DNA from: Calditrichaceae bacterium
Lineage (GTDB): Bacteria > Calditrichota > Calditrichia > Calditrichales > JBFXGD01
DNA length: 39,423 nucleotides
Reading direction: 5' to 3'
Assembly (NCBI GenBank): GCA_050178385.1
Contig: JBFXGD010000014.1
Span: 1-39,423 of the forward strand
In this document: piece by piece, positions 4,466 through 34,330 of the stretch
Layout: each line of letters opens with the position of its first letter
Position numbering within the stretch: the stretch's first letter is position 1
Made by a program: the position numbers and the translations under genes
Notes under the pieces: generated by a model
What the model was told of the DNA's origin: nothing
Database searches by the model: none
Seen by the model: only the letters and a program-made list of their open reading frames with translations

Positions 4466-4518
4466 TTACCGGAGTTAGCTATATCTTAAGAAAATCTTCT
4501 CCTTCCATCGCCATTTTA

Positions 4519-4547
4519 TTGATCAGCCAGGGCTTTCTGTTTAAATT
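4519..4547 (+). promoter_or_regulatory. Putative sigma70 promoter
   Basis: TTGATC-17 bp-TAAATT ending 30 bp before the ATG at 4577. Confidence 0.5.
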
Positions 4548-4576
4548 AAATCAGGATACTTAAAAAAGGATTTTAA

Positions 4577-5548: not shown

Positions 5549-5549
5549 C

Positions 5550-6395
5550 GTGAAAAGCGGTATCACCTACCTCAGAAATTACTTCAGAATTATTCGTCCG
5601 CTGAATGTGCTGATCTCAATCATAAGTATTTGGGTGGCTGCCCTTATATCCAGCCAGTTTCATGTCAACATGAGGTTAGTTCTTGGAGGATTGGTCGCGG
5701 CATTAATTACGGGCGGAGCGAATATCATAAACGATATTTATGATATTAAAATTGACCGGATCAACAAACCGGGCAGGATGCTTCCATCAGGAGTTATTAC
5801 AGTAGAGACGGCCTGGAAATATTTCTACTTCTCCTACGGACTGGCTATCATAGTGTCTGTTTTTTGCGGCTGGGATATGTTTTTTGTCGCATCTGTGGTC
5901 GCTATTAGTCTTTACTGGTACAGCGTGGTATTAAAGAGAACAATTCTGTGGGGAAATATTCTGGTGAGTTTCTCGACGGGAGTTGCTTTCATTTATGGAG
6001 CTATGGCGGTTAATGACTGGCCGGCGGGGGTTATTCCGGGAATATTTGCGTTTTTCTTTCATTTTGGCCGGGAAATCATCAAAGATATGCAGGATATAAA
6101 AGGGGATCTTTCCGAAAACGCGGTGACATTTCCAGGACAAAAAGGGATGAAGAGCTCAATCGCCCTGGTTAACCTAATTTTTATTTTATTGATAATACTT
6201 ACCATAGTTCCTTATATTTTAAATATATACAATCTGACCTATCTGTTTGTTGTATTAATTGGCGTGGATCTGATACTGCTGATGGTCTCCATTTCAATCT
6301 GGAAATGGAATGATCCTTCGGCGCTGGGGAAATTTAGTCATCTGTTAAAATTAGATATGGTAGTCGGTTTAATCGCAATATATCTGGGATCGTAA
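5550..6395 (+). CDS. UbiA-family prenyltransferase, digeranylgeranylglyceryl-phosphate synthase-like
   Basis: Polytopic membrane protein with NIINDIYDIKIDRINKPGRMLPSG and REIIKDMQDIKGD, the motif pair of the DGGGPS clade. GTG start. Confidence 0.8.
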   Translation: MKSGITYLRNYFRIIRPLNVLISIISIWVAALISSQFHVNMRLVLGGLVAALITGGANIINDIYDIKIDRINKPGRMLPSGVITVETAWKYFYFSYGLAIIVSVFCGWDMFFVASVVAISLYWYSVVLKRTILWGNILVSFSTGVAFIYGAMAVNDWPAGVIPGIFAFFFHFGREIIKDMQDIKGDLSENAVTFPGQKGMKSSIALVNLIFILLIILTIVPYILNIYNLTYLFVVLIGVDLILLMVSISIWKWNDPSALGKFSHLLKLDMVVGLIAIYLGS

Positions 6396-19667: not shown

Positions 19668-20672
19668 ATGAAAATTGTTGTTTTGATGGGCGGTGATTCT
19701 ACCGAGCGCGACGTTTCTCTTGTCTCCGGTGACCATATTGCACAAGCTTTGAGCGAAAATGGCCACACAGTCATAAAAGTTGATCCCGCGGGAGACAAAG
19801 AGAGCCAGGAAAATCTCAACAAAGAGCATCATCACTTTATCACCCTTGATCATCCGGATGATTTTACATCATCACTAAACAAAGGTGATCTTTTGTTCAG
19901 GAATATGATGCTGATCAGACGTCTTAAACCGGATTTGGTCTTCAATGCGCTTCATGGAGGCAAGGGTGAAAACGGAATCATTCAAAGTATGCTGGATTCC
20001 GCTGAGATTAAATATACGGGATCAGGTCGAATCGCAAGTATGATTGCCATGGATAAGGATCTCACAAAAACCCTTCTAAGAACAGCAAAATTACCTACCC
20101 CCAGATCACATACCCTTGAGCGTCCGGAAGCATCGAGGAAAAGAATCAAGAAACTCGAATACCCGCAGGTCGTAAAACCGAATGACCAGGGCTCCACAAT
20201 TGGATTGGGAATAGTTAATAATTACGAAGAACTTGAGAATGCGATCGATGAGGCATTCAAATATAGTTCAAAAGTGATCATCGAAGAGTACGTTCCGGGA
20301 AGGGAAATTACTGTCGGTGTAGTTAAATCAAGAATATTGCCGGTGATTGAAATAGCTCCTAAGCACGGGCTTTATGATTATGAATGCAAGTATTCAAACG
20401 GTATGAGTGAATATATAGTCCCGGCGGAATTAAGTGATGAACAAACGAGAAATCTGCAAAATATTGCTTTTAAGGCTCATATCCTTTTAGGTTGCAAAGG
20501 GTATTCCAGAGTTGATTTCCGTCTCACACCGGATGGAGAGCCGTACATACTTGAAGTCAATACACTGCCGGGAATGACCGGCACAAGCCTTTTACCGAAA
20601 GCGGCAAAAGCAGTGGGTATAAATTTTAACTCGTTGGTTGAAATGATCATTGAAGAAGCAATATCCGCCTGA
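19668..20672 (+). CDS. ddl: D-alanine--D-alanine ligase
   Basis: GGDSTERDVSL, ALHGGKGENG, MDK, YDYECKY, RVDF, LEVNTLPGMT. Confidence 0.94.
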   Translation: MKIVVLMGGDSTERDVSLVSGDHIAQALSENGHTVIKVDPAGDKESQENLNKEHHHFITLDHPDDFTSSLNKGDLLFRNMMLIRRLKPDLVFNALHGGKGENGIIQSMLDSAEIKYTGSGRIASMIAMDKDLTKTLLRTAKLPTPRSHTLERPEASRKRIKKLEYPQVVKPNDQGSTIGLGIVNNYEELENAIDEAFKYSSKVIIEEYVPGREITVGVVKSRILPVIEIAPKHGLYDYECKYSNGMSEYIVPAELSDEQTRNLQNIAFKAHILLGCKGYSRVDFRLTPDGEPYILEVNTLPGMTGTSLLPKAAKAVGINFNSLVEMIIEEAISA

Positions 20673-20708
20673 TCAATTAGCCTTTACAAAATTCAAAGAT
20701 GGTTATAA

Positions 20709-22166
20709 ATGAGTAAATTAGAAATATATAATACATTAAGCAGAAAAAAAGAAACTTTTAAACCGATACATCCGGGTTTTGTCGGTATTTATGTTTGCGG
20801 CCCGACTGTGTACGGACATGCTCATCTGGGGCACGCAAAAAGTTACATCAGTTTTGATATTGTGGTGAGATATCTGCGCTATCTGGATTACAGAGTGCGT
20901 TATGTACAGAATATCACTGATGTCGGTCATCTGGTAAGCGACGCCGATGAAGGTGAGGATAAAATTATCAAACAGGCGAGACTAGAGAAACTTGAACCGA
21001 TGGAAATTGCCGAATTATATACCCGAAGTTATTTTGAAGATATGGATGTTTTAAATGTCCTGCGGCCGGATATATCACCCAGGGCCACAGGTCATATTCC
21101 GGAGCAAATCGATTTGATAAATGACCTTATGGAGAAAGGATTCGCTTACGAATCCGGTGGCAATATCTATTTCGATGTGAGCAAATTCAGTGATTACGGT
21201 AAATTATCCGGCAGGAAGGTCGATGAGCTCATGGCCGGTGTCAGGATTGATCTTAATGATGAAAAAAAACATCCCGCCGATTTCGCGTTATGGAAAAAAG
21301 CGGAAAGCGGACATATTATGCAGTGGAACAGTCCCTGGGGTAAAGGTTATCCGGGATGGCATCTTGAATGTTCATCAATGTCCACTAAATATTTAGGGGA
21401 GACGTTTGATATACATGGCGGTGGTCTGGAAAATATTTTTCCGCATCATGAGTGCGAAATCGCTCAAAGTGAAGCTGCTAACGGAAAGTCCTTCGCGCGC
21501 TATTGGATGCACAACAATATGGTTACCGTCGATGGTGTTAAAATGGGAAAATCTTTGGGGAATTTTATTACCATCAAGGACGCGGTGAAAAAATATCCGC
21601 CACTTGCCATTCGTTTTTTTATCCTGACAAGTCATTACCGTTCGCCCCTCGATTTTAGTGCTCAGGCCTTGGACGCCGCGCAGAAAGGCCTTGAAAAAAT
21701 TCACGGTAACTTTGTAAGAATATCGAAAATTAAAACCACAGATGATTCCGATGGCGGTGAATTCCAAAAGAGCATAGACGCTTACCGCAAGGCATTTGAA
21801 GAAGCAATGAATGATGATTTCAATACGCCGCGCGCGATTGCCGCTCTGTTTGATTTCTTCAGAGATATAAACAGCCGGCTCGATCAGACACGGGACGCCT
21901 TGAATAGGTCTGATGCTGAAAAACTAAATACGATTATCAATAAAACCGCCGGCGATGTATTAGGTCTGCTTCCCGACCGCGATATTCAGGCTGAGCATTC
22001 TGGAAATGGTGATATTTCCGGGATAATGAAGATTATCCTTGATATCAGGCTTAAACTTCGCAAGGAAAAGAATTTTGCCTTATCTGATGAGATCAGAGAC
22101 CGTCTGGCGGATATAAATATTGAAATAAAAGATACTCCCACAGATACGGAGTGGGAACAAAAATAG
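20709..22166 (+). CDS. cysS: Cysteine--tRNA ligase
   Basis: CGPTVY..HLGH, DFALWK, PGWHLECS, FPHHECE, KMGKS. Confidence 0.97.
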   Translation: MSKLEIYNTLSRKKETFKPIHPGFVGIYVCGPTVYGHAHLGHAKSYISFDIVVRYLRYLDYRVRYVQNITDVGHLVSDADEGEDKIIKQARLEKLEPMEIAELYTRSYFEDMDVLNVLRPDISPRATGHIPEQIDLINDLMEKGFAYESGGNIYFDVSKFSDYGKLSGRKVDELMAGVRIDLNDEKKHPADFALWKKAESGHIMQWNSPWGKGYPGWHLECSSMSTKYLGETFDIHGGGLENIFPHHECEIAQSEAANGKSFARYWMHNNMVTVDGVKMGKSLGNFITIKDAVKKYPPLAIRFFILTSHYRSPLDFSAQALDAAQKGLEKIHGNFVRISKIKTTDDSDGGEFQKSIDAYRKAFEEAMNDDFNTPRAIAALFDFFRDINSRLDQTRDALNRSDAEKLNTIINKTAGDVLGLLPDRDIQAEHSGNGDISGIMKIILDIRLKLRKEKNFALSDEIRDRLADINIEIKDTPTDTEWEQK

Positions 22167-22181: not shown

Positions 22182-22211
22182 AAAAAACCCCGGTATGACC
22201 GGGGTTTTTTT
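22182..22211. terminator. Bidirectional intrinsic terminator between cysS and the convergent cytochrome gene
   Basis: AAAAAACCCCGGT-ATG-ACCGGGGTTTTTTT: GC stem with an A-tract on one side and a T-tract on the other. Confidence 0.9.
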
Positions 22212-22245: not shown

Positions 22246-23982
22246 TTAAAAATTCCTTACAGCTTTATCACGTGAACTTAGTAAAGTCAAAGTTGAATAT
22301 GATGACTTTTCCGGGATCTGGGACTGCATGTAAAGAATGGATTGTTGCAGAATCTGAATCGCGTATTCAGGATTATGAATTCCGCGGCTTCCATCACCCA
22401 AAACGAATGCCAGATTGTAACCTCCGGTTCTCAATATCTGCGCCTGGGTGGTTGGTTCACCCGCGGCTGTAGTATCATTGATGGTTTCAGACAGAGCAGT
22501 AACAATATCCATACCTACCGTATCCAAACCTGCCGTGACCAATTCTGAAGTTAGGTTATCCATCAGACCGTCAATTTCCAGCTGTAAACCTTCGGTTGTG
22601 CCGTCACCATCAAAGTCATTGTTTGCCATAATATCCTCAAAATCACTGACCGTTCCGTGGCATTTCCCGCAGGAGCTTGTAGTCGCTTCAAATGTATGAC
22701 CGGTATTGGCGTTTGGATAAGGAGTGGCGTTCATATGACAGGTTGTACAGCCGTTTTCGATCACATAATGGTTTGTAAATTTGCCGCTGAATTCAAAATC
22801 AAATCCTTCATAAGCGCTGATTCCCGCCAGCATATCACCCTGAGGTGATTCGTGAGGACCAAAATGGGCATAACCGGTCTCAATTTGAGTATCGGCTGAA
22901 CGGCGCGCGTGATGGCACTGTACGCAAAGCTGGCCGTTTCCGGCAATCGCGATGGTCTGAGTTTCCATATTGGCTTCTACGGAAGTGACATCAGCGAGTG
23001 TACGCAACTGGAACGCATTTTCATCACTGTGCGGATTATGACAGGTTGAGCAGGAAACATTGCCGGGATCCGCTGGATCATGAGCAACACCACCACCGAA
23101 TGCGGCTATAAATCCGGAACCGCTATGGCAAGGCTGACAAAAACTGTTTGCGGGCGCACCGTGCGCGGCGGTCGCGGGATCGAAATTATGTTTGGAATCA
23201 ACCCAGTCTGAATTGAATGGATGATGTTCGCCGGAATGGCATGTGGTGCAGTTTTCCGCGCTGATATCAACATTTATAGCTCTGTCCTCAGCGGTGAAGT
23301 CCGGATGTTTTGAACCGGGACCATGGCAGTTTTCGCACTGTACATTTTCAAACATGGCGATTGGCGCGTCATCATATCCCGCATTTCCCGGAACCTGGTC
23401 AAAATCAACCGTATGGCATGGATTACAGTAAGAAGCGGGATGAGCGCTGGCCTGGAGTGTTGCCCAGGCGTGAGCATGACCGGTTTCCTGCCATTCCGCG
23501 GCCTTACCGCTATGGCAGGTGGCGCATTTGGCGCCGCCGACATAGAATGTATCTGTAATGGCGGCATACATTCCGACACCGATATTTCTTGAACCAACTC
23601 CTATATAAGTGCCGTCAGTAATATGCACGGAAATCACATAAGTACCGGCATCATCCGGTGCTTTCCATGTGACTGTATCACCTTCGGTCTTATCAAATTT
23701 TCCATCGTTTGATACCCAGAAGTATTTTAAAGCACCTACTTCGGATACAACATCAGTTTCGGCGGTAAGTGTGATTGTACCTCCGACAGCGATGGAATCC
23801 GGATTTGTAACGATATCATTTACGACAACCGGAATCACATTCACAAATATACTGTCATGAACCGTGACGGTATCCCTTACAGTTACTTCTACAATCTTTT
23901 CCGTTTCGTCTGTACAGCCTCCAAAGAACAGCGTACCAAGAAATAACATTGGCATAACGACAGAAATTAATCTCCTTAACAT
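22246..23982 (-). CDS. Nonaheme cytochrome c lipoprotein with N-terminal Ig/PKD-like domain
   Basis: ATG 23982 after AGGAGGGG; lipobox LFFGG-C23. Nine CxxCH (CATCH, CNPCH, CENCH, CTTCH, CQPCH, CSTCH, CVQCH, CTTCH, CGKCH); C-terminal DGSRGIHNPEY helical region. Confidence 0.92.
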   Translation of the reverse strand: MLRRLISVVMPMLFLGTLFFGGCTDETEKIVEVTVRDTVTVHDSIFVNVIPVVVNDIVTNPDSIAVGGTITLTAETDVVSEVGALKYFWVSNDGKFDKTEGDTVTWKAPDDAGTYVISVHITDGTYIGVGSRNIGVGMYAAITDTFYVGGAKCATCHSGKAAEWQETGHAHAWATLQASAHPASYCNPCHTVDFDQVPGNAGYDDAPIAMFENVQCENCHGPGSKHPDFTAEDRAINVDISAENCTTCHSGEHHPFNSDWVDSKHNFDPATAAHGAPANSFCQPCHSGSGFIAAFGGGVAHDPADPGNVSCSTCHNPHSDENAFQLRTLADVTSVEANMETQTIAIAGNGQLCVQCHHARRSADTQIETGYAHFGPHESPQGDMLAGISAYEGFDFEFSGKFTNHYVIENGCTTCHMNATPYPNANTGHTFEATTSSCGKCHGTVSDFEDIMANNDFDGDGTTEGLQLEIDGLMDNLTSELVTAGLDTVGMDIVTALSETINDTTAAGEPTTQAQILRTGGYNLAFVLGDGSRGIHNPEYAIQILQQSILYMQSQIPEKSSYSTLTLLSSRDKAVRNF

Positions 23983-24051
23983 AAAACCCCTCCTAAATAA
24001 TATGAACAATTAGACATAATGATTTTTGTTTAGTGTTGAACATCCCGTTGA

Positions 24052-24417
24052 TTAATAATTTAATTTTTTTTCGCCCAGATACCTTTGTAGCTGCTCATGA
24101 AACTCGTTCTGTGCAACAGGTTTCATTAAATAAGCCAGTATTCCCATTGGCAGAGCCTTTTTACATATCGTAATATGTTTATCAGAGAGTACCAGGATCA
24201 CAGGCACCGATCTTTTTAATAATTTTATAATTTTAAGAACATGAATAACCCGTTGTTCCAGTAAATCGATATCGAGAATAACCAGCTCGTAATGATTTGA
24301 AAGAAAACTTTCGAGAAATGTACAACAGGCTCTATAAGACTGGATCTCAAAATTAAAATCCGAATCCGGCTGTCCCTTGAATGTCTCTTCTGCTGTAAGT
24401 ATAATTACATGTTTCAT
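24052..24417 (-). CDS. Atypical stand-alone receiver-domain protein (copy 1)
   Basis: ATG 24417 after AGGA. LVILDIDLL, ILVLS and AYLMKPV receiver pattern; lacks the beta1 DD pair; YRACC. Confidence 0.8.
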   Translation of the reverse strand: MKHVIILTAEETFKGQPDSDFNFEIQSYRACCTFLESFLSNHYELVILDIDLLEQRVIHVLKIIKLLKRSVPVILVLSDKHITICKKALPMGILAYLMKPVAQNEFHEQLQRYLGEKKLNY

Positions 24418-24447
24418 TTCATTCCTAACTTTTAATAGAAATGTAAT

Positions 24448-24464
24448 TACATAAATTGTGCCAA
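24448..24464 (-). promoter_or_regulatory. Sigma54 (-24/-12) promoter of module 1
   Basis: Minus strand TTGGCACAATTTATGTA: TGGCAC -24 box with correctly spaced TG(T) -12 box. 16/17 identical to the copy at 27398-27414. Confidence 0.75.
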
Positions 24465-24540
24465 GAATCACAATGTTGGCTATCTTGTTAATAAACAAGT
24501 GGATAAGAGAATTCATAATTATGCGTTTGAATTCCAGATA

Positions 24541-24556
24541 GAGACAAGATTGTCGC
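24541..24556. promoter_or_regulatory. Palindromic activator site (proximal UAS, module 1)
   Basis: GAGACAAGATTGTCGC, fitting GnGACA-N4-TGTCnC. Confidence 0.7.
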
Positions 24557-24628
24557 GGTAACGGAAGTGAATTATTCTAAATGGTTGTTATTATGGGGTA
24601 TAGCTATTCGTGACAATAAAAAAGTGGT

Positions 24629-24644
24629 GGGACACATTTGTCAC
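24629..24644. promoter_or_regulatory. Palindromic activator site (distal UAS, module 1)
   Basis: GGGACACATTTGTCAC, 88 bp from the proximal site. Confidence 0.68.
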
Positions 24645-24816
24645 AGTACAGGTCTGAAATAATAAAAGAAATTATTAGACAACTGAAAATATAGATAAAA
24701 GTGTATATTTTTATTTATATCAGTGTTTAAACTGATGATAAGAAAATACAGTATTCATACTTTTTGCTTAATATCAGAATGTGGATTGAATATTTATTCG
24801 AAATAATAAATATTTT

Positions 24817-24849
24817 AAAAAGCCTTTCCGCCCGGAGGCGGAAAGGCTT
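24817..24849 (-). terminator. Intrinsic terminator after the T9SS-tagged cytochrome
   Basis: 13-bp perfect stem AAGCCTTTCCGCC/GGCGGAAAGGCTT with a 4-nt loop; U-tract on the minus strand. Confidence 0.88.
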
Positions 24850-24867
24850 AATCTGAATCGAGGTTTC

Positions 24868-26898
24868 TTACTTCATCAATATCATTTTCTTCATCGATTC
24901 AAATTGTTTACCATCGTTAGCTGTTACTGTTAGTCGATAGAAATATACACCGGATGAAAGATTTGACGCGATGAATTTTGTGTCATGCGCGCCGGCATTC
25001 ATGTTATCATCAATAAGAGTAGCCACTTTTTGTCCAAGTGTGTTGTAAACCACGAGATTAACATGACCGGATTTCACAAGTGAGAAATGAATGTTTGTTT
25101 TCGGATTGAACGGGTTTGGATAGTTCTGTGACAATGCATAATTCATTGGAATAATATTTACTTCGTCTGAGATTCCCGTTGCATTTAAGGCAGCGATGGA
25201 TTCATTTAGAAGAGCGATAGTATATGCCGGATTGTGGATACCAAAACTTCCGTCTTCCTCAACAAAGAAATAATTGTAACCGGCCTGAGCTTCTACCAAT
25301 GTGACTGATGAGTCATCAATAGCGACTGTCGGTTCACCTTTTGGGGGGAGAAGAAGCGCGAGTTCTTCCAGCAGTCCCTCTACTTCCTGCTGCAATCCTT
25401 CGGCTGTTCCATCACCGTCATGATCAGCGTTTCCGTTGATGTAGTATTTTTTCTCATCAAATGAAGTTCCCACATTGCCATGGCAATCGGCGCACGCGGC
25501 GACGTTGTCCACACCATCAGGTGTGCTCATTGCAAATGAGTGGGATCCGCTTAATATAACTTCACCGCTTTCATCGGCATGTCCGGGATACATATGACAA
25601 TCAACGCAGGCGTTTTCCGTGGCTGCCAGATGCGGAGATGAAGGTAAATCTTTACCAAAAGTCACCGTATTTGTTCCAATGAGCATATCTCCCTGCAAAC
25701 TGCCATGTGGTCCGAAATGGCTGCTCAGATTAGCCAGATAGTCGTTCGTATAAATCTCCGCATCCTGACGGCTTTTATGGCAGTTCATACAAAGTTTGCC
25801 AAGCCCGCCCTGTGTGACAACTTCACCATTGGTTAAAGTTGCTTCAATCGTTCTTACCTGATGCTCATTTGTCACATTATGCGGATCATGACAGGCCGCG
25901 CAGGTAATAGGCAGGTAATCCGTGTTTATGGGAGTGACACCTTTTAAACTTTGGACAAATCCTATACCTGTATGGCATGGAACGCAGGATTCACGATTGG
26001 CACCGGATGGATAGGTGGTGGCGTTGCCATGCAATGAGACATCCCACTGCTCTGGATAGACATGGTGAGTGCCTGAATCATGGCACCAGGCGCAGTTATC
26101 TGCCTTAAGATCAACAATCATCCTGGCGTCGCTGGTATTGCCGTTATGGCGATCACCGGGACCATGGCAGCTTTCACACTGAATTCTTGCCAGTTTCATT
26201 GAATTTGGATAAAGCGCTTCGAGTGCGTCCCAAGTTCCGGGAGCAAGTGAATCAGGGAATGCCCACACAGAATCAATGTCGTCGATTAGCTGAGTGCGGT
26301 CATCAAAGCCGTCGTTTTTGGCCATTAGATCATAGCCGGTTGTATGGCAGCTGACGCAATCCGGGCCATAATGATCACTGGCGGTTCCCATCATTGCTTC
26401 TTCAAATAACCAATAGTGGCCGGTCTGTTCCCAAGGTGTAACCACATCATCCAAAAATGTATCAGGCCCATGGCAATTGGTACAATTTTCATAAACACCG
26501 ACATATTTGCCGGCATTGATGGTCAGTTCGGCTGAAAATGCTCCGTCGGCGAAAGTTATTTTGTATGTACCGGCGATGTCAGGTGTAAAGACAATAACTT
26601 CTGATGAAGTATCCATTACCGCCATCGCGCCGAAGTCAGCCATTGAACCGTTAGGTTTAACGGTGACGCTCCATACAGGATTTGTCAGACTGGCTCCGCT
26701 AAGCGTTCCCTTTAAATACATCTGTGTCTCAATACCGACATTGTTCAATCCGTTAAAAGCCCGGTCAAATATATCTTCCGTATCAGCAACAACATCACGA
26801 GGCGAGACACCATAGGTTTCCAGTTTCATAGTCTGCGCGAAAACCTGTGCAGCGCAGATCAGAAACATGGCCAGAACTAAAAGTAATTTTTTGTTCAT
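24868..26898 (-). CDS. Nonaheme cytochrome c with Sec signal peptide and C-terminal T9SS type-A sorting (Por secretion tail) domain
   Basis: GGAGGGG RBS; signal peptide ending VFA-Q. Nine CxxCH (CTNCH, CVSCH, CESCH, CAWCH, CVPCH, CAACH, CMNCH, CVDCH, CADCH). Tail YALSQNYPNPFNPKT...VYNTLGQKV...LSSGVYFYRL...KKMILMK. Confidence 0.93.
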   Translation of the reverse strand: MNKKLLLVLAMFLICAAQVFAQTMKLETYGVSPRDVVADTEDIFDRAFNGLNNVGIETQMYLKGTLSGASLTNPVWSVTVKPNGSMADFGAMAVMDTSSEVIVFTPDIAGTYKITFADGAFSAELTINAGKYVGVYENCTNCHGPDTFLDDVVTPWEQTGHYWLFEEAMMGTASDHYGPDCVSCHTTGYDLMAKNDGFDDRTQLIDDIDSVWAFPDSLAPGTWDALEALYPNSMKLARIQCESCHGPGDRHNGNTSDARMIVDLKADNCAWCHDSGTHHVYPEQWDVSLHGNATTYPSGANRESCVPCHTGIGFVQSLKGVTPINTDYLPITCAACHDPHNVTNEHQVRTIEATLTNGEVVTQGGLGKLCMNCHKSRQDAEIYTNDYLANLSSHFGPHGSLQGDMLIGTNTVTFGKDLPSSPHLAATENACVDCHMYPGHADESGEVILSGSHSFAMSTPDGVDNVAACADCHGNVGTSFDEKKYYINGNADHDGDGTAEGLQQEVEGLLEELALLLPPKGEPTVAIDDSSVTLVEAQAGYNYFFVEEDGSFGIHNPAYTIALLNESIAALNATGISDEVNIIPMNYALSQNYPNPFNPKTNIHFSLVKSGHVNLVVYNTLGQKVATLIDDNMNAGAHDTKFIASNLSSGVYFYRLTVTANDGKQFESMKKMILMK

Positions 26899-26973
26899 AC
26901 TAACCCCTCCGTAATTTGATATGGTAAACCACTTATCTATGATCTTTAATAGCTGTGTAATCGCAGCTATTCA

Positions 26974-27363
26974 TCATATGTCTTTTTCAAGCCTACTGTT
27001 TCCATGTTGTAAGATCGGATCCAAAATTCTGAATAATTCCTTACCGGAGACCGGTTTTATAAGATAGGAATGGATTCCCAGTGGCAATGCTTGTTTACAG
27101 ATCGAGATGTGTTCTTCCGACAGGATTAGAATAATTACGATAGAATTTTTAATCAGCTTGAGTACGTTAATAAGATGAGTCACCCGTTCCTTTAAAAGAT
27201 CGATATCCAGCATAATCATATCAGTATGCAGGGTCAGAAATCCCTCCATAAGTTCGCAACAGCTCTGATAACAGGTCACTTCAATTTTGCAAAGGCCATC
27301 CAGAGTGCTTTGAAAATCCTCAACTAGTCCGTGCTCGGAGGACAAAACCAGGAGTCTTTTCAT
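26974..27363 (-). CDS. Atypical stand-alone receiver-domain protein (copy 2)
   Basis: ATG 27363 after AAGGGA; MIMLDIDLL, ILILS, SYLIKPV, YQSCC. 40 of 78 residues identical to copy 1 in an ungapped hand alignment. Confidence 0.8.
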   Translation of the reverse strand: MKRLLVLSSEHGLVEDFQSTLDGLCKIEVTCYQSCCELMEGFLTLHTDMIMLDIDLLKERVTHLINVLKLIKNSIVIILILSEEHISICKQALPLGIHSYLIKPVSGKELFRILDPILQHGNSRLEKDI

Positions 27364-27397
27364 GTTATCCCTTTTTCTGACCAGTATAAATATTTTA

Positions 27398-27414
27398 TAC
27401 ATATATTGTGCCAA
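27398..27414 (-). promoter_or_regulatory. Sigma54 (-24/-12) promoter of module 2
   Basis: Minus strand TTGGCACAATATATGTA. Confidence 0.75.
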
Positions 27415-27489
27415 ATATCATAAAAAGACTAAGCTCAATATTTACAATTAGTTAGCCGTGCCTGTGATTATGTGTATTAGTACTGTGGC

Positions 27490-27505
27490 GAGACAATTTT
27501 GTCGC
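27490..27505. promoter_or_regulatory. Palindromic activator site (proximal UAS, module 2)
   Basis: GAGACAATTTTGTCGC, 14/16 identical to 24541-24556. Confidence 0.7.
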
Positions 27506-27578
27506 ATAATATTTTCTTATTTATTGATAAGTTATTGTTTATTAATGAGATACCAAACCGTAACCAACCTGCGACATT

Positions 27579-27594
27579 GGGACAAAATTGTCCC
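27579..27594. promoter_or_regulatory. Palindromic activator site (distal UAS, module 2)
   Basis: GGGACAAAATTGTCCC with perfect 7-bp arms, 89 bp from the proximal site. Confidence 0.7.
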
Positions 27595-27690
27595 TGAAAA
27601 TCAATGTTTTTTATGTAATTAGTCCTAAATTATCACCGAAATGATTCTGTTTGGGGAAGAACTGTCAATATCAGAAATAAAGCGGACGGT

Positions 27691-27719
27691 TTGACATGAT
27701 TCCTATTTTTTAATAAACT
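27691..27719 (+). promoter_or_regulatory. Sigma70 promoter of the sensor kinase/activator operon
   Basis: TTGACA-17 bp-TAAACT, then AAGGAA RBS and ATG 27746. Confidence 0.7.
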
Positions 27720-27745
27720 TATACATCGGTAAGAAGGAATTTTTT

Positions 27746-29221
27746 ATGTTCAAATCCCTGAAAACATTGTTTATTTCTTTTACTACGGTTTTAATCCTTG
27801 TGACTGTCGGCATTCCAACCTATGTGTTGATTTCAAAATTGAGAGATAATTTTCAGGAAACATATAATTATATGGTAAAGTTGACCGTTGATATGATTCG
27901 CTGTGATATTTCACATGCCATGATGGACGGCAAACCTGAAAAACTATCATTTTTTGTAAACAAAATATCGCAGCTGAGTAGTGTGTACAGGGTTAGTATT
28001 ATTAATCCTGAGGGCGTTGTGACTCACTCAAATCATACTTCAGTGATAAGCAAAAATATCAACGATGTACAAGACCACGAAAATCTTACAATAGAACCGG
28101 ACACATCACTCACCCAATTTTATCATAACGGGTCGGTCTATTCCGCCATGTTTCCGATCATTAATAAAAAAGAATGCCATACCTGTCATGATGCCGGCAA
28201 AAAGATTATCGGTTTTGTTGATGTTGATCTCAATCTGACTAAGGCGGAATACAGATTCAGGGATACAGTGAGAATGACTCTGGTCAGCGGCGTTTTATTG
28301 ATTCTGATCCTTGGTAGTGTTTTGTATATCATGTTCAACCGCTATATCAACCGACCCATTAAGGACCTTGCAGGAGCCATGGACGAGGTTGAAAAAGGAA
28401 ATTTTACGGTCCGGTTATATGTAAGCAGATCCGCAGAGATCAAAACACTTCAAAACCAGTTCAATCATATGGTTAAAAAACTTGACGAATCCCGGAAGAA
28501 GATAGATGATTACCATCTGGAGCAGTTACAAAGGGCTGATCGTCTTGTAACACTGGGTGAATTGACGGCAGAACTTGCTCATGAAATCAATAATCCATCA
28601 GGGATAATACTTACAAGGGCTGATTATCTAAGAAGTGTATTTCATGATCTGGATAATTACAAGGAATATGAAGAGGATCTGGACGCCATTGTTAATCAGA
28701 TCGAAAAAGTTTCAAAAATAACCTCCAGCATATTAAAATACAGTAGAAAATTACCCAAGAATTTTCAGTCGATTAACCTTAAGGAAACATTACTTGAGAG
28801 TTTGAAAGTATTACAGCCGCGTCTTGATAAATATGATATTAAAGTAAACATTATTGATGACGGCGGAGACTGGATCAGATGGGGCGAGGCCATGCAGATG
28901 GAGCAGGCATTCACCAATCTTATTAACAATGCCGTTGACGCTTCTGGAAAGGGGTCTTCTATTGATGTGATTTTTAAACATAAGGAGCATGAAAACGGAA
29001 AAATAATTGAGATAGAAATCAACGATAATGGCAGCGGAATCGGGCCCAAAAATATATATCAGATATTTGAACCGTTTTATTCATCCAAACCGCCCGGCAA
29101 AGGCACGGGGCTTGGATTATATATTGTAAATAATATCATAAAAAATCATAATGGCAAAATAGAAGTTTCCAGTGAACTAGATAAAGGGACTTCATTTAAA
29201 ATAACATTTCCGGCGGATTAA
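27746..29221 (+). CDS. Membrane sensor histidine kinase with periplasmic heme c motif, HAMP, HisKA and HATPase domains
   Basis: Two TMs flank a domain containing CHTCH (28175-28189). HAMP RPIKDL..EIKTL; H-box LAHEINNP; NLINNAVDA; DNGSGI; FEPFYSSK..GTGLGL. Confidence 0.93.
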   Translation: MFKSLKTLFISFTTVLILVTVGIPTYVLISKLRDNFQETYNYMVKLTVDMIRCDISHAMMDGKPEKLSFFVNKISQLSSVYRVSIINPEGVVTHSNHTSVISKNINDVQDHENLTIEPDTSLTQFYHNGSVYSAMFPIINKKECHTCHDAGKKIIGFVDVDLNLTKAEYRFRDTVRMTLVSGVLLILILGSVLYIMFNRYINRPIKDLAGAMDEVEKGNFTVRLYVSRSAEIKTLQNQFNHMVKKLDESRKKIDDYHLEQLQRADRLVTLGELTAELAHEINNPSGIILTRADYLRSVFHDLDNYKEYEEDLDAIVNQIEKVSKITSSILKYSRKLPKNFQSINLKETLLESLKVLQPRLDKYDIKVNIIDDGGDWIRWGEAMQMEQAFTNLINNAVDASGKGSSIDVIFKHKEHENGKIIEIEINDNGSGIGPKNIYQIFEPFYSSKPPGKGTGLGLYIVNNIIKNHNGKIEVSSELDKGTSFKITFPAD

Positions 29222-29222
29222 A

Positions 29223-30596
29223 ATGATTCGTTTAATGATCATTGACGATGAAAAAGAGATGCTGATCAGCCTGAAGAAAGTGCTTTCCAGGAACAATCAG
29301 TATGAAATTGAACTTTTTCAGGATGGCAGAAAAGCCCTGGATGCCCTACTCACCGAAAAGTATGACGGTGTGATTTGCGATCTGAAGATGCCTTCCATTT
29401 CGGGCCTGGACATTCTAAAAAAGGTTAAGTCAGATTACCCTGATATCTTTGTGATTGTCATATCCGGATATGGTACCATAGAATCGAGTGTGGAAGCGAT
29501 GCGTCTGGGCGCATTCGATTTTATCGAGAAACCTTTTCCATCAAAGAAATTGATGGATTCACTTTCCAGGGCGTTAAACGGTAGAATCGGATCAAATTCC
29601 GATTCTTTGGAAATCGACCAGCTCCAAAAAGAATTTCCGGATATCATTTTTATTAGTGAAAAAATGAAAGACATCCTTGTGATGGTCAGAAAAGTGGCAT
29701 TGGGGAAGGCGAATGTTTTGATAACCGGTGAGAGCGGAACGGGAAAAGAACTGATTGCCAGAAGTATCCACCGCATGAGTAAGCGTTCTGAATTTCCGTT
29801 TATTCCTGTGAATTGCGCAGCGCTGCCGGAAAATTTATTTGAAAGCGAACTTTTTGGATATGAAAAAGGGGCTTTTACCGGCGCCAACAGGACAAAGCCG
29901 GGACTTGTGGAGTTTTCTGATAAAGGATCATTTTTTCTTGATGAAATAGGAGATTTAGGGCTTAATCTTCAGGTGAAATTGCTCAGAATGCTCGAAGAGC
30001 GAAAAATCCGCCGTGTTGGCGGCAAGGAAGAAATAGCGGTTGATGTGAGAGTGATCAGCGCGACAAATAAAAATCTGGAAGTCATAGTTAGTGAGAAAGG
30101 GCTTCGAAAAGATCTACTATACCGGTTGAACACCATTAACATTGAAGTGCCCCCGCTGAGAGAGCGGCCGGAAGATATCCAGTGTCTCGCGGAATATTTT
30201 CTTGATGAGTTGAGAAGAAAAGAGGATAAAACGATCTATAAAATCGCTGAAGATGCCATGGAGTCATTGACAAATTATCACTGGCCGGGGAACGTCCGTG
30301 AACTGCAGAATATCGTGACCAGGGCATTTTATCTTTGCCAGGGAAATGATATTCGATTGGAAGATCTCCCGCCCGTTCTCTATAAAAATGCTGAAGCGAT
30401 TTTGGACAAGATTTTACATATGCCGTACCGGGAAGCAAAAGAGCAGGTTCTTGAAACATTTGAACAAAAATATATCACAAATTATTTAAAAAAATATAAT
30501 GGAAATATAACACGGGCCGCGGACGCTTGCGGAATAGACCGGCGGACCATGCACAGGTTAATAAATAAATACGGTATCATCTATTCCGATAAATAA
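29223..30596 (+). CDS. NtrC-family sigma54-dependent response regulator (REC-AAA+-Fis HTH)
   Basis: IIDDE, CDLKMP, GESGTGKE, intact GAFTGA (29868-29885), LDEIGD, WPGNVRELQN, NITRAADACGIDRRTMHR. Confidence 0.96.
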   Translation: MIRLMIIDDEKEMLISLKKVLSRNNQYEIELFQDGRKALDALLTEKYDGVICDLKMPSISGLDILKKVKSDYPDIFVIVISGYGTIESSVEAMRLGAFDFIEKPFPSKKLMDSLSRALNGRIGSNSDSLEIDQLQKEFPDIIFISEKMKDILVMVRKVALGKANVLITGESGTGKELIARSIHRMSKRSEFPFIPVNCAALPENLFESELFGYEKGAFTGANRTKPGLVEFSDKGSFFLDEIGDLGLNLQVKLLRMLEERKIRRVGGKEEIAVDVRVISATNKNLEVIVSEKGLRKDLLYRLNTINIEVPPLRERPEDIQCLAEYFLDELRRKEDKTIYKIAEDAMESLTNYHWPGNVRELQNIVTRAFYLCQGNDIRLEDLPPVLYKNAEAILDKILHMPYREAKEQVLETFEQKYITNYLKKYNGNITRAADACGIDRRTMHRLINKYGIIYSDK

Positions 30597-30717: not shown

Positions 30718-31272
30718 ATGAAAATATATACGGGATACGGGGATGAGGGAAATACCGCTTTATTCGGCGGGGATGTGGTGCAAAAAGATCATCCGCGTGT
30801 GGAGCTTTACGGTACGCTGGATGAATTAAACAGCATCATTGGCTTGCTGAGATCAAAGAACAGCCATTCAGGGATTGATGAGCTTTTATTTCGAATCCAG
30901 TATGAATTGTTTGTTTTTTCGGCAGAGATTGCGACACCGGATGAAAAGGCGCGAAAAAAATTCAGCAGACAAATTGCTCAGGAACATGTAAACGCGCTGG
31001 AAGATGCAATCGATTTTTATGAAGCTGATCTTGAACCGCTGAAAAATTTTATACTCCCGGGAGGAAGCGAAGCAGCGGCGATCGCGCATCTGGCCCGGAC
31101 CGTATGCAGAAGAGCGGAACGTATTTTTGTAAAACTGAGAAACGAAGCGGATTTGCGGAAACAAATGCTGATCTATCTGAACCGGCTGAGTGATCTGTTG
31201 TTCATAATCGCAAGATTTGAAAACAAGCACCATGGTACTGACGATGTGAAATGGGAAGGAAACAGAAATTAA
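30718..31272 (+). CDS. pduO: ATP:cob(I)alamin adenosyltransferase, PduO type
   Basis: MKIYTGYGDEGNT, GTLDELNS, FILPGG, ARTVCRRAER, YLNRLSDLLF. Confidence 0.92.
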   Translation: MKIYTGYGDEGNTALFGGDVVQKDHPRVELYGTLDELNSIIGLLRSKNSHSGIDELLFRIQYELFVFSAEIATPDEKARKKFSRQIAQEHVNALEDAIDFYEADLEPLKNFILPGGSEAAAIAHLARTVCRRAERIFVKLRNEADLRKQMLIYLNRLSDLLFIIARFENKHHGTDDVKWEGNRN

Positions 31273-31472
31273 TTAAAATTCAATATTTCAGATATATAAT
31301 ACCTTGTAATTTTAGTTGATAGTTTTGCTGCTTCCCACAAATGATAAAAATGATCGGCTGGTTTTCAGATTTTAGAAAAGTCGTTATTGCCGAAAAAAAT
31401 CCGGTTTAAGCTAAAGCATTGTTTATAATTTGATTAGCTTGTGCCAGTTGTTATGTTTTATGATTAATAAAA

Positions 31473-31488
31473 TGGCATGATAATTGAA
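31473..31488 (+). promoter_or_regulatory. Putative sigma54 promoter of the 2-oxoacid:ferredoxin oxidoreductase operon
   Basis: TGGCATG-ATAA-TTGAA with correct -24/-12 spacing, about 70 bp upstream of the start. Confidence 0.5.
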
Positions 31489-31556
31489 CTTTATTATTGC
31501 CAGAGTAGTTTTGTGATTTAGAAAAAATTTATATTTATACATCAGATAAAGAAGGG

Positions 31557-31820
31557 ATGGTTATGGAAAGGAAAATCTTGGACAAACCATTTGTTAAAGT
31601 TGAACCTGAGCTATGTAAGGGTTGTGGTCTCTGTATAGACGCCTGTCCGCCTGATGTTTTGGAGTTTAATTCCAAATTTAATAGCAAAGGGTATCATTTT
31701 GCCTATTATTTGGGTGAGAACTGCACCGGATGCGGGGTCTGTTTTTATGCCTGCCCTGAGCCTGAAGCGATAATTGTGTATAAAAAGGGATATGAAATGC
31801 TTGCTGAGGAGGTGGCCTGA
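31557..31820 (+). CDS. 2[4Fe-4S] ferredoxin / delta subunit of 2-oxoacid:ferredoxin oxidoreductase
   Basis: [12 protein letters not shown] and [15 protein letters not shown] overlaps the next ATG. Confidence 0.9.
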
Positions 31821-32866
31821 TGTCGAAGATATTGCTGAAAGGGAATGACGCTGTTGTTCGGGGAGCCATACTCGCCGGATGCCGGGTATATTTCGGCTAT
31901 CCGATTACACCCGCAAGCGAAATAGCGGAAACAGCGGCGAAATATATGCCGGCCGTTGGAGGTACATTTTTACAGGCTGAGAGTGAAGTAGCTGCGATAA
32001 ACATGGTTTACGGCGCAGCCAGCGGCGGTGTGCGATCGATGACTGCCTCTTCAAGTCCGGGAATCAGTCTGAAGCAGGAAGGCGTCTCTTACGCCGCCGG
32101 GGCTGAATTACCCTGTGTCATTGTCGACGTAATGCGTGGCGGCCCGGGTCTTGGAAATATTGCTCCTGAACAGTCAGATTACAATCAGGTGGTTAAAGGC
32201 GGGGGGCATGGAAATTATAAATGTCCGGTTCTGGCGCCAAACAGCGCACAGGAGATGTCTGATCTGACTCAGCTGGCATTTGAACTGGCTGAAAAATATC
32301 GTACTCCTGTGTATGTGCTTGCGGATGGTTATACCGGGCAAATGATGGAGCCGGTTGAATTTGGTGAACCGGTCACAAAATTGCCCCGTCATGAATGGGC
32401 GCTTTATGCCGATAAAGAAAGTAAGAAAAATCTTATTTCGAGTATATATCTTGATCCGGAAGAACTGGAAGAACATAACAGGCGTTTACAGGATAAATAT
32501 CGCAAGGTTGAGGAAAATGAACTTAGGAAAGAAGAATTCATGCTTGAAGATGCCGAATATGTGGTTATGGGTTATGGAATTATTTCCAGAATTCTCAAAA
32601 CTGTTGTCGAGAAGCTTCGGAAAGATGGCGTGAAAATTGGTCTTCTGCGGCCGATCACATTATTCCCTTACCCATCAGAACGAATAAACGAACTGTCCCG
32701 CAAGGTCAAGAAATTTCTTGTTGTGGAATTAAGTAACGGTCAGATGGTGGATGATGTCCGGTTAGCGGTGAGCGGAAACTGTCCGGTCGAGTTTTATAAC
32801 AGGATGGGCGGAGTTGTCCCTTCAACTGAAGAATTGCTGGAACGTACCAAATTACTCCTGAAGTAA
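31820..32866 (+). CDS. vorB: 2-oxoacid:ferredoxin oxidoreductase alpha subunit (VorB-like)
   Basis: [42 protein letters not shown]. Confidence 0.85.
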
Positions 32867-32890
32867 TGAAAATATAAGAGGTAGATAAAT

Positions 32891-34330
32891 ATGGCATCGA
32901 AAGTATTGCAAAAACCGACAAGTTTTTATGAACAATATGATAGAAATCCAAGTTCGGACAAAAAAATGCCTCATTACTGTCCGGGATGCGGTCATGGTAA
33001 TGTTCACAAATTTATTGCTGAGGCTCTGGATGATTTCGAAGTGGCGGACAAGACAATCCTGATCAGTCCTGTAGGATGCAGTGTGTTCGCCTACTATTAT
33101 TTTAATACCGGTAATATTCAGGCTGCGCACGGTCGCGCGCCCGCAGTAGCCACCGGTATAAAACGCGCTCATCCTGAGAGTGTTGTTATCAGTTATCAGG
33201 GAGACGGCGACCTTGCCGCTATCGGAACAGCTGAAATCCTTCATGCGGCAAACCGTGGTGAAAACATCACTGTCTTCTTTGTCAATAACGCTATTTACGG
33301 TATGACCGGCGGACAGATGGCTCCGACAACTCTGGTAGACCAGCGTACGACTACAACGCCCCGCGGCCGTAATCCTCATAACGAAGGTTATCCCATAAAG
33401 GTAGCGGAATTAATCAGTCAGCTTCAGGCTCCGGTTTATGTGGAACGTGTGGCTCTCTTTGATAATAAACACAGGGCTCAGGCCAGACTGGCAGTGCGGA
33501 AGGCTCTTAAAAATCAGATAAACAATCTTGGTTTTTCATTGATAGAAATATTGTCACCATGTCCATCCGGGTGGAAAATGGATCCCGTGGATTCAATGAA
33601 ATGGATAAAAGATGTTATGCTCCCGCAGTTCCCGTTAGGGGTTTACCGTGATCTTACAAAAGAAGTCGAACCCTATAATTTTGAGCAGATCAATCCATCG
33701 GCTGATGAAATTAAAAAACTGATTGACATTGTACCGGACACCGACAAAAATTTCGGGAAACCCGAAATTCCGGTGAAATATCAGAATCCCGCGATTAAGG
33801 TGGCGGGTTTTGGAGGTCAGGGCGTACTGCTGTTGGGCGCGGCAATCGCACAGGCGGGTATGCTGGCCGATTATCATGTTTCATGGCTTCCTTCATACGG
33901 ACCGGAGATGCGCGGCGGTACAGCAAACTGTCATGTAAATATAAGAGACATTGAAGTGGGTTCACCGATGGTAAGTAATCCAACCGTCCTTATCGCGTTA
34001 AACAGGCCTTCGCTTGAAAAGTTTGAAGCGGACGTGACTGCAGGCGGACTGATCATTTATGACAGCTCGCTTATCGATATCGATGTGAAACGCAAAGATG
34101 TGGAAGTAATGCCCATTCCTGTGACTCAGATGGCTGACGAACTGGGAAATACGCGTATGGCCAACATGATTACCATGGCAGCTTATGTCGCTTATACCGG
34201 ATTGTTTACAAAGGAAACCCTTTACGAAACATTGAAGACAGCGATCAAACGTAAAAAATTAATCGATATGAATAAAAAAGCGGTTGATGCCGGTTTTGAA
34301 TTTGGATTAAAACATAAAAACAAGAAATAA
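32891..34330 (+). CDS. 2-oxoacid:ferredoxin oxidoreductase fused beta (TPP-binding) + gamma subunit (VorA-like)
   Basis: HYCPGCGHG, GDGD...NNAIYGMTGGQ, SPCP, then gamma domain AGFGGQG, PSYGPEMRGGTA. Confidence 0.88.
   Translation: MASKVLQKPTSFYEQYDRNPSSDKKMPHYCPGCGHGNVHKFIAEALDDFEVADKTILISPVGCSVFAYYYFNTGNIQAAHGRAPAVATGIKRAHPESVVISYQGDGDLAAIGTAEILHAANRGENITVFFVNNAIYGMTGGQMAPTTLVDQRTTTTPRGRNPHNEGYPIKVAELISQLQAPVYVERVALFDNKHRAQARLAVRKALKNQINNLGFSLIEILSPCPSGWKMDPVDSMKWIKDVMLPQFPLGVYRDLTKEVEPYNFEQINPSADEIKKLIDIVPDTDKNFGKPEIPVKYQNPAIKVAGFGGQGVLLLGAAIAQAGMLADYHVSWLPSYGPEMRGGTANCHVNIRDIEVGSPMVSNPTVLIALNRPSLEKFEADVTAGGLIIYDSSLIDIDVKRKDVEVMPIPVTQMADELGNTRMANMITMAAYVAYTGLFTKETLYETLKTAIKRKKLIDMNKKAVDAGFEFGLKHKNKK

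Follow-up and report, generated by a model that had tools for sequence, protein, structure and literature searches.

What does a bacterium control when a sensor kinase with a heme-binding motif and a sigma-54 activator stand back-to-back with two multiheme cytochrome operons? The question is raised by a six-gene locus at positions 22246-30596 of a 39,423-nucleotide stretch of DNA from a Calditrichaceae bacterium (GenBank assembly GCA_050178385.1, contig JBFXGD010000014.1; the whole stretch is referred to below as the window). Four of the genes, on the minus strand, make up two receiver-cytochrome cassettes, recA-cytA and recB-cytB, and the other two, on the plus strand, form a kinase/activator operon. 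The reading that we favor, with a probability of about one half for the whole chain, is that the locus is a conserved two-component, sigma-54-dependent regulon for cell-surface cytochromes of the OcwA type, which would carry out terminal reduction of extracellular electron acceptors.

The two cassettes have an identical build, consisting of two palindromes, a -24/-12 element, a gene for a receiver of ~120 aa, a cytochrome gene with nine CxxCH motifs, and a terminator. cytA (22246-24009, minus strand; 587 aa, 9 CxxCH) encodes a nonaheme OcwA-like cytochrome predicted to be a lipoprotein, and recA (24052-24417, minus strand; 121 aa) a stand-alone receiver (REC) protein. cytB (24868-26898, minus strand; 676 aa, 9 CxxCH) encodes a second OcwA-like cytochrome with nine hemes, which begins with a Sec signal peptide and a beta-sandwich and ends in a sorting domain of the type IX secretion system (T9SS); its receiver gene, recB, lies at 26974-27363 (minus strand; 129 aa). 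The plus-strand operon comprises the sensor histidine kinase (27746-29221), with a first transmembrane helix (TM1), a periplasmic heme-c sCache/PAS-like domain (C144xxCH), a second transmembrane helix (TM2) and HAMP, HisKA (H279) and HATPase domains, and the NtrC-type sigma-54 activator (29223-30596), with REC, AAA+ (carrying GAFTGA) and HTH_8 domains. The receiver open reading frames (ORFs) as listed mechanically, 24052-24516 and 26974-27414, both contain the promoter elements; the true starts are therefore likely to be the ATG codons at 24417 (MKHVIIL...) and 27363 (MKRLLVL...). The likely start of cytA is the ATG at 23982. An initial annotation of this DNA had described the twin-cassette architecture, and every structural detail of it was confirmed: the ORFs, the CxxCH counts, the palindromes, the promoter elements and the terminators.

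The case for coordinate control begins with the upstream regions of the cassettes, which align in register from a distal palindrome through a proximal palindrome to a TTGGCACAAT(T/A)TATGTA element. Pattern matching places the sigma-54-type -24/-12 element of cassette A (TGGCACAATTTATGTA) at 24448-24463 on the minus strand, a position conserved in orthologous loci, and that of cassette B (TGGCACAATATATGTA) at 27398-27413 on the same strand. Both read TGGCAC-N5-ATGTA, with GG present and GT at the -12 position; in orthologous loci the -12 element is mostly TTGC, with TTGT in some. The putative activator sites follow the pattern GACAA-N2-TTGTC. In cassette A the proximal site is GACAAGATTGTC (24543-24554) and the distal site, with one mismatch, is GACACATTTGTC (24631-24642); in cassette B the proximal site is GACAATTTTGTC (27492-27503), and the distal site, GACAAAATTGTC (27581-27592), lies inside GGGACAAAATTGTCCC, 154 bp upstream of the kinase start. 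With the transcription start set 11 nt after the -11 base, arithmetic from the coordinates gives both cassettes the same palindrome centers, about -111 and -199.

The loose promoter pattern is not rare by itself, as it matches three times in the window and 14 of 100 shuffled sequences also reach three. The palindrome is a different matter: allowing at most one mismatch, it occurs eight times in the window against 1.5 expected, none of 100 shuffles reached eight, and four of the eight matches fall within the two cassette upstream regions. A sigma-54-like element with a palindrome 40-300 bp upstream was found four times in the whole 3.89-Mb assembly, and the two-palindrome form is confined to these two cassettes. 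Promoter-plus-site matches on contigs C71 and C205 were rejected as members of the regulon, as they represent a duplicated contig end before a MerR-like gene and have one imperfect site. The ends concerned (C71:1-300 and C205:1-300) are near-identical and carry a TTGGCATCATTTTTGTC element before the MerR-like regulator gene; they probably represent one split locus, or a repeat at which the assembly broke.

Each cassette ends in a predicted intrinsic terminator. The one after cytB (24815-24849, minus strand) is a 13-bp hairpin followed by UUUUU, with a folding energy of -25.7 kcal/mol (z -5.8) that none of 200 shuffles equaled. Between cytA and a convergent cysS-like gene lies a bidirectional terminator (22182-22210) with a 13-bp stem containing 6 GC pairs, followed by U6, with T-runs on both strands (-23 kcal/mol, z -4.0). 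No terminator-like structure was found between receiver and cytochrome genes in either cassette. The recB-cytB spacer (26899-26973, minus strand) contains a possible 22-nt hairpin, AUAGCUGCGAUUACACAGCUAU, without a U-run, and folds as a whole at -15.5 kcal/mol (z -2.1), a structure that the recA-cytA spacer lacks; the hairpin might be a processing or attenuation site, or might be due to chance.

The kinase has a periplasmic domain of ~135 aa between TM1 and TM2 and matches PF21563, HAMP, HisKA and HATPase_c in Pfam. The PF21563 score is 28.6 bits against a cut-off of 27 (31.2 bits in a genome scan, where this kinase was the sole match), and PF11845 gave no score at E < 0.01 in the Pfam search. 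The CxxCH of the sensor domain is kept in 20 of 20 kinase orthologs, and across 16 orthologs the only invariant sensor-domain positions are N35, M59, C144, C147, H148 and D159. A profile built from 16 orthologous sensor domains matched 3b42 (E 1.9e-8) and 3b47 (E 2e-6), the heme-c sensor domains of the Geobacter chemoreceptors GSU0935 and GSU0582, and a model of the domain (predicted local distance difference test, pLDDT, 81.3) gave 3b42 as the top Foldseek match, followed by the Cache domains of WalK, CitA and PctD. M59 aligns with the MM of the Geobacter heme-c domains, which makes it a candidate for the distal heme ligand. As judged from these alignments, the periplasmic domain is a member of the heme-c sCache/PAS-like family of sensors and is predicted to bind one heme c covalently. 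A 2026 preprint includes such domains in an sCache_heme family (PMC12889525). Two kinase paralogs elsewhere in the genome also adjoin multiheme ORFs: one, 25% identical over residues 1-408, lies beside a 13-heme ORF (C2:11289-13886), and the other beside a 4-heme ORF (C166:3-2473).

By its sequence, the activator is a complete NtrC-type protein. It scores 224.8 bits with PF00158, 93.4 bits with PF00072 and 37.1 bits with PF02954, and carries a Walker A motif at 169, GAFTGA at 216 and CDLKMP at residues 52-57. Its best NCBIfam similarities, to AtoC, a PEP-CTERM regulator and NtrC, are each below the cut-off. The assembly also contains rpoN (419.6 bits, above the cut-off). The initial annotation had proposed a heme-sensing kinase and a GAFTGA-containing activator, and both proposals are supported, the first by the conserved heme-c domain and its match to 3b42, the second by the completeness of the protein. 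On comparative grounds we regard it as very probable that a heme sensor kinase acts through the NtrC-type activator and the sigma-54 promoters on the two receiver-cytochrome operons.

The receivers themselves are divergent CheY-like single-domain proteins, to judge from profile and structural matches. recA exceeds the PF00072 cut-off of 30.2 bits, at 36.1 bits, and recB falls just below it, at 29.0 bits; an Atlas structure of recB has TM-scores of 0.81-0.86 to REC domains. The two proteins are 44% identical and have no other close paralogs in the genome, and neither matches the REC domain of the activator at E < 1e-3. In a 34-row alignment, which includes one wrongly extracted row and one truncated row, the acceptor Asp (LD-x-D), the beta-4 Ser and the beta-5 Lys-Pro are each present in at least 90% of rows. 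Ignavibacteria have a DD-like N-terminal acidic pair, of the kind that serves Mg2+ in CheY-like proteins; it is reduced to TAEE in recA and SSEH in recB, and is absent from the receivers at loci L052, L148 and L154.

Cytochrome and regulator genes often occur together in other genomes. A pattern search with cytB returned 43 loci from Calditrichaceae, KSB1, Ignavibacteria, Melioribacteraceae, Marinimicrobia, Latescibacterota, Gemmatimonadota, Rhodothermales and others, at least 3 of which are cut on the upstream side by a contig end. Orthologs of kinase and activator adjoin the cytochrome gene in 18 of the 43, 16 of them in the divergent arrangement of the window; among the 18, the activator frame is split at L016 and the genes at L022 are collinear. 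An ORF for a receiver of 120-140 aa lies between kinase and cytochrome in 17 of 17 loci examined. Just upstream of it, TGG[CT]A-N7-T[GT][CT] occurs in 14 of the 17, at 2.5 per kb against a background of 0.24 per kb on both strands of the same loci, and inspection by eye of the other three found TGGCAC-N5-TTGA, AGGCAC-N5-TTGC and TGGCAC-N5-TTGG. About 150 bp further upstream, palindromes of TGTCCC/GGGACA or TGTGAC/GTCACA half-sites are present in many of the 17, the GGGACA/TGTCCC type recurring in Ignavibacteria loci.

A census that started from the kinase alignment was less selective, as its patterns fell in the generic kinase core and 75 of its 79 loci were partial matches to unrelated kinases. 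The four full-length new orthologs (L049-L052) all adjoin a receiver gene and a multiheme cytochrome gene; the cytochrome at L052 is shorter, with 8 CxxCH and a sorting domain. Between cytochrome and kinase, L052 also has ~1.5 kb (4400-5900) of ORFs that repeat peptides such as RGATVWLPF and KGQNMIARG, which suggests tandem or dispersed DNA repeats.

For cytA, a single-sequence locus search gave two real relatives and was replaced by a profile search of 86 Calditrichota genomes. Cytochrome matches at E <= 1e-40 were found in 43 of the 86, and in 28 of the 53 of high quality. They fall into two size classes, a cytB type with a sorting domain and a cytA type of ~580-615 aa, and the cytA orthologs in other Calditrichota are 39-59% identical to cytA. 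Twenty regions were examined. Both cytB-type regions contain the full module. Among the 18 cytA-type regions, 6 have the full four-gene module, 2 have kinase and activator with no detectable receiver, 3 have the receiver only, 1 has the receiver and an activator lacking REC, 2 have a REC-less activator only, 2 have neither regulators nor receiver, and 2 are cut by a contig end. Of 19 Calditrichota loci, 13 have a sigma-54-like element in the upstream 900 nt, against ~2.3 expected from the loci's own background.

As read from these gene neighborhoods, the four-gene unit of kinase, activator, receiver and cytochrome, together with its sigma-54-type promoter, is conserved in Ignavibacteria, Calditrichota and a Rhodothermales metagenome-assembled genome (MAG), and many uncultured bacteria from sediments and landfills have the same module. 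The synteny that the initial annotation had singled out for checking is thus present across phyla, with the promoter before the receiver gene. The twin-cassette form was seen only in the window and in a same-genus genome (L001/G038). As cytA- and cytB-type modules elsewhere have regulators of their own, the window joins two module types under one kinase/activator pair.

The search results include several variants of the cytochrome gene. At L032, two tandem copies have broken frames. A single 1072-aa ORF at L004 (401-3619) has 18 CxxCH and one sorting domain and has the appearance of two OcwA-like cores joined head to tail; forms of ~1055-1098 aa, near the L004 length, occur among the metagenome proteins P0002, P0003, P0011, P0029, P0060 and P0067. 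L036-L038 and L041 carry an Ignavibacteriales variant (782 aa at L036-L038, with the frame interrupted at 375 aa at L041) that has no receiver gene and neither a kinase nor an activator gene beside it, and in which a canonical TTGGCA-N7-TTGCA element lies 52 nt before the cytochrome start, at 8001. Matches to the heme core at E < 1e-10 make up at least 1122 protein clusters at 90% identity, which suggests a widespread, unnamed family; in public databases the related clusters go by names such as "T9SS type A sorting domain-containing protein" and "hypothetical protein". One Ignavibacteriaceae homolog, P0043, is called "ammonia-forming cytochrome c nitrite reductase subunit c552" at NCBI. It is probably misnamed, from a partial PF02335 match over the C-terminal helices of the kind that cytA shows below threshold (18.8 bits against a cut-off of 24.1).

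We then asked what the cytochromes are. Apart from the sorting domain of cytB, Pfam and NCBIfam returned only generic multiheme matches for either protein. Against all PDB sequences, the best match of both is 6i5b, the OcwA structure (E 6.2e-14 for cytA, 8e-7 for cytB). An AlphaFold2 model of cytB built with 30 homologs (pLDDT 83.7; predicted TM-score 0.70) consists of a signal helix, a beta-sandwich (23-130), a heme core followed by three long C-terminal helices (502-516, 534-549 and 557-573), and a beta-sandwich sorting domain (588-674). Foldseek ranked 6i5b first for this model (E 1.8e-6, probability 1.0, 399-457 columns). VIA-align, which is independent of Foldseek, gave OcwA a Z of 13.9 over 328 residues (model 130-572) and OmhA (6qvm) a Z of 13.6; its rows below those for OcwA, OmhA, NrfA and octaheme nitrite reductase (ONR) cover only the sorting domain. 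Judged by sequence and, for cytB, by modeled fold, cytA and cytB are OcwA/OmhA homologs, that is, NrfA-related multiheme cytochromes, and the comparison with Thermincola in the initial annotation was apt. In a quick tree of heme cores, the cytA clade has a long branch and does not group as sister to the cytB of the window, and we therefore make no claim on the order of duplication.

In the 30 aligned homologs all nine CxxCH motifs are invariant, as are H161, H251, H290, H340, H398, H453 and H555 (cytB numbering), and H279 and M436 occur in at least 90% of the sequences. His-His motifs, HH281/282 and HH380/381, flank the two penta-coordinated hemes of OcwA (PMC6703420, PMC9250108). In the HMMER alignment H278-H279 of cytB falls on the OcwA His-His pair near heme 2, which the offset of the second pair identifies as HH281/282. 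The second pair aligns with H394-F395 of cytB in an HFGPH context, with H398 invariant and one His aligned, so that this site appears to be only partly kept. cytA carries HH262/263, HFGPH382, CHM and GIHN, and a motif scan found no CxxCK in either protein. PF22113, the MtrC/MtrF domain II/IV family, matches cytB at residues 179-310 (132 residues, 42.6 bits). The MtrC/OmcA decaheme family, whose ten hemes form a staggered cross flanked by two beta-barrel domains, was nevertheless not adopted for cytB, which has nine hemes and no MtrC or OmcA chain among its listed fold matches.

Targeting signals predict a surface location for both cytochromes. The sorting domain of cytB scores 38.4 bits with PF18962 (cut-off 27) and 39.4 bits with TIGR04183 (cut-off 23), and the genome encodes T9SS machinery (sortase PorU, 818 bits; translocon SprA, 886 bits summed) together with ~40 further sorting-domain ORFs. 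No such domain was found in cytA by the Pfam and NCBIfam searches. Its N-terminus reads MLRRLISVVMPMLFLGTLFFGGC followed by TDETEK; we take the FFGGC to be a lipobox by the usual rule, and the acidic stretch after the Cys presumably resembles the surface-export signal of Bacteroidota lipoproteins, which we treat as a lead only. The initial annotation had one membrane-tethered and one secreted cytochrome. The tethered half agrees with the lipobox of cytA; the sorting domain of cytB agrees with export, but T9SS cargo often stays on the cell surface instead of being released.

The locus had also been called self-contained, a description that we do not retain. None of its six genes encodes a quinol dehydrogenase, a periplasmic carrier or an outer-membrane conduit, and candidates for NapC/NirT-type quinol dehydrogenases lie on other contigs. 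The genome is rich in multihemes, with 27 scattered ORFs having at least 3 and up to 22 CxxCH, and these are candidates to supply the missing electron path to the surface. Such ORFs include a 22- and a 20-heme ORF side by side (C84:7415-10815) and a cluster of 19-, 12-, 11-, 9- and 3-heme ORFs (C7:13342-22017), with further multiheme regions at C4:42599-50079 and C6:39207-47313.

Put together, the favored reading would work as follows. The sensor heme would report the periplasmic redox poise, or bind a small ligand such as nitric oxide (NO), and the kinase would phosphorylate the activator, which would oligomerize on the palindromes and open sigma-54 closed complexes. The small receiver, as the first product of each transcript, may feed back on the phosphorelay, its simplest role being that of a competing phosphate sink. 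Sec would export the cytochromes, which would be loaded with heme in the periplasm; cytB would reach the cell surface by way of the T9SS, and cytA would be held by a lipid anchor. There they may reduce extracellular acceptors (Fe(III) and Mn(IV) minerals, humics or electrodes), as do OcwA and OmhA, with electrons supplied by quinol oxidases and conduits whose genes lie outside the locus. Of the functions considered, extracellular electron transfer has the best support, by analogy: OcwA, the nearest characterized relative, reduces iron oxides at the cell surface of Thermincola potens and binds flavin mononucleotide (PMC6703420), and terminal reduction of extracellular acceptors is favored for that reason.

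Several observations weigh against this reading or parts of it. The sigma-54 consensus is TGGCACG-N4-TTGCW at fixed spacing, with GG at -24 and GC at -12, and both cassettes have GT at -12. Many homologous cytochrome loci, among them those of Marinimicrobia and most of those of KSB1, stand without adjacent regulators. The acidic pocket of the receivers is degenerate, some orthologs having no acidic residue there at all, so that their phosphorylation is uncertain. The absence of an electron path from the six genes, noted above, counts here too, and no MtrB/PioB porin was found in this 94%-complete genome, in a search directed at that porin type alone. The sequencing runs found are DNA only, mostly with landfill or generic metagenome labels, and include no RNA run. 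Finally, some structural and sensory relatives of the module act on nitrogen compounds: three NrfA structures (Z 12.2-12.4) and ONR (Z 12.1) come close behind OcwA in VIA-align, and two Pseudomonas members of the sCache_heme family bind NO (PMC12889525).

These last points lead to the main rival reading, rather unlikely but still in contention, in which the wiring is the same and the cytochromes reduce soluble nitrite, NO, hydroxylamine, sulfite or polysulfide, the sensor detecting NO or a related ligand and inducing a detoxifying or respiratory reductase in the envelope. Beyond the NO-binding sensors, the proteins belong to the fold superfamily of NrfA, ONR, MccA and OcwA, the first His-His motif is conserved in both cytochromes, and P0043 bears a nitrite reductase name. 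OcwA itself has two open-coordination hemes and reduces nitrite and hydroxylamine in vitro, but its nitrite turnover is very slow, with a kcat of 1 per min (PMC6703420). CxxCK is absent from cytA and cytB, the second His-His motif reads HFGPH, and the closest solved structures are those of two iron reductases of the cell surface rather than of NrfA. The T9SS signal and the lipobox, moreover, place the proteins outside the periplasm, which would be needless for a soluble, membrane-permeant substrate.

It is improbable, although consistent with the same export signals, that the surface cytochromes run in the opposite direction, oxidizing Fe(II), reduced humics, cathodes or a syntrophic partner and being induced when the periplasmic pool is oxidized. 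Multiheme chains are generally reversible, and the kinase response could be of either sign. OcwA also oxidizes hydroxylamine (PMC6703420), but the available portions of PMC6703420 and PMC9250108 name no uptake protein among the characterized members of the OcwA/OmhA group. That the adjacency is incidental, with the kinase and activator controlling other genes and the cytochrome operons using another sigma-54 activator or a sigma-70 promoter, would fit the non-canonical -12 element and the sigma-54-like promoters without adjacent two-component genes at L036-L038, L041, L142, L149, L151 and L152, but is very improbable given a divergent arrangement kept in Ignavibacteria, Calditrichota and a Rhodothermales MAG at 31-56% protein identity, a two-site promoter found genome-wide only at these cassettes, and a single PF21563 protein in the genome.

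The flanks of the locus (19668-22166 and 30718-34330) look like housekeeping genes, named here from reading their translations without a family search: D-Ala-D-Ala ligase-like, cysteinyl-tRNA synthetase-like, cobalamin adenosyltransferase-like and 2-oxoacid:ferredoxin oxidoreductase-like subunits. The coding GC content of the module is about that of the flanks.

With the regulon for surface cytochromes as the preferred reading, a broader proposal suggests itself, which we advance tentatively and at somewhat less than even odds. Bacteria of the Fibrobacterota-Chlorobiota-Bacteroidota (FCB) group, among them Ignavibacteria, Calditrichota, Marinimicrobia and KSB1, may display nonaheme reductases of the OcwA/OmhA type through the T9SS or a lipid anchor, as an unrecognized diderm route of extracellular electron transfer that is, in many lineages, governed by a kinase with a periplasmic heme-c redox sensor and by sigma-54, with the atypical, co-transcribed receiver as a feedback element. 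OcwA and OmhA have so far been treated as a Gram-positive route to insoluble acceptors (PMC6703420, PMC9250108). A large homologous family in diderms, carrying T9SS or lipoprotein signals and predicted to be wired through sigma-54 to a heme-bearing sensor, would provide a candidate mechanism for the interaction of abundant, uncultured Ignavibacteria, Calditrichota and Marinimicrobia with minerals, humics or electrodes. The cytochrome and its regulators provide a marker set for metagenome surveys, and the promoter, binding sites, sensor heme and accessory receiver make a compact circuit in which to ask what signal induces surface cytochromes.

All parts of the module are of known kinds, while their combination, the delivery route and the breadth of distribution appear to be undescribed. 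The literature searched yielded no description of the module or of T9SS-sorted multiheme cytochromes. The module is not described in the available portions of papers on Ignavibacteria and Caldithrix (PMC7399161, PMC11495043, PMC5317091), PMC11475568 has no occurrence of module-related terms, and the names "Ignavibacteri" and "Calditrich" are not mentioned in the accessible part of PMC9250108.

Among known systems, MtrC and OmcA, with their MtrAB conduits, resemble the present cytochromes as proposed surface terminal reductases, and cytB shares the PF22113 match. They differ in having ten hemes rather than nine, no MtrC structure was among the listed fold matches, and no MtrB/PioB porin was found in the genome; MtrC and OmcA are exported by the type II secretion system, as opposed to the T9SS for cytB. 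The sensor domains of GSU0935 and GSU0582 (3b42 and 3b47) share with the kinase a single CxxCH on a short helix and a Cache/PAS-like fold between two transmembrane helices, but their output is a chemoreceptor, whereas here a HAMP-histidine kinase is predicted to feed an NtrC-type activator. That activator shares with those of NtrB/NtrC, ZraS/ZraR and AtoS/AtoC the REC, GAFTGA-bearing AAA+ and HTH_8 architecture and palindromes ~100-200 bp from a -24/-12 promoter; unlike in those systems, the sensor is of the heme-c type, the targets are predicted surface cytochromes, and a stand-alone receiver gene leads each target operon.

The closest comparison is with OcwA of Thermincola potens (6i5b) and OmhA of Carboxydothermus ferrireducens (6qvm), the best sequence and fold matches, which cover the heme core and the C-terminal three-helix bundle. 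OcwA has nine CxxCH in the same number and order as cytA and cytB, and the HH after heme 4, the CHM after heme 8 and the G(I/V)HN in the helical bundle all align. A predicted extracytoplasmic surface location is likewise common to the group. The hosts of OcwA and OmhA, however, are Gram-positive and those of cytA and cytB are diderm FCB-group bacteria; association with the S-layer or cell wall is replaced by a sorting domain in cytB and a lipid anchor in cytA, cytB has an additional N-terminal beta-sandwich (model 23-130), the second His-His motif reads HFGPH, and identity is only ~20-26%. No regulation of OcwA is described in the accessible portions of PMC6703420 and PMC9250108, whereas cytA and cytB are predicted to have a dedicated sigma-54 two-component regulator.

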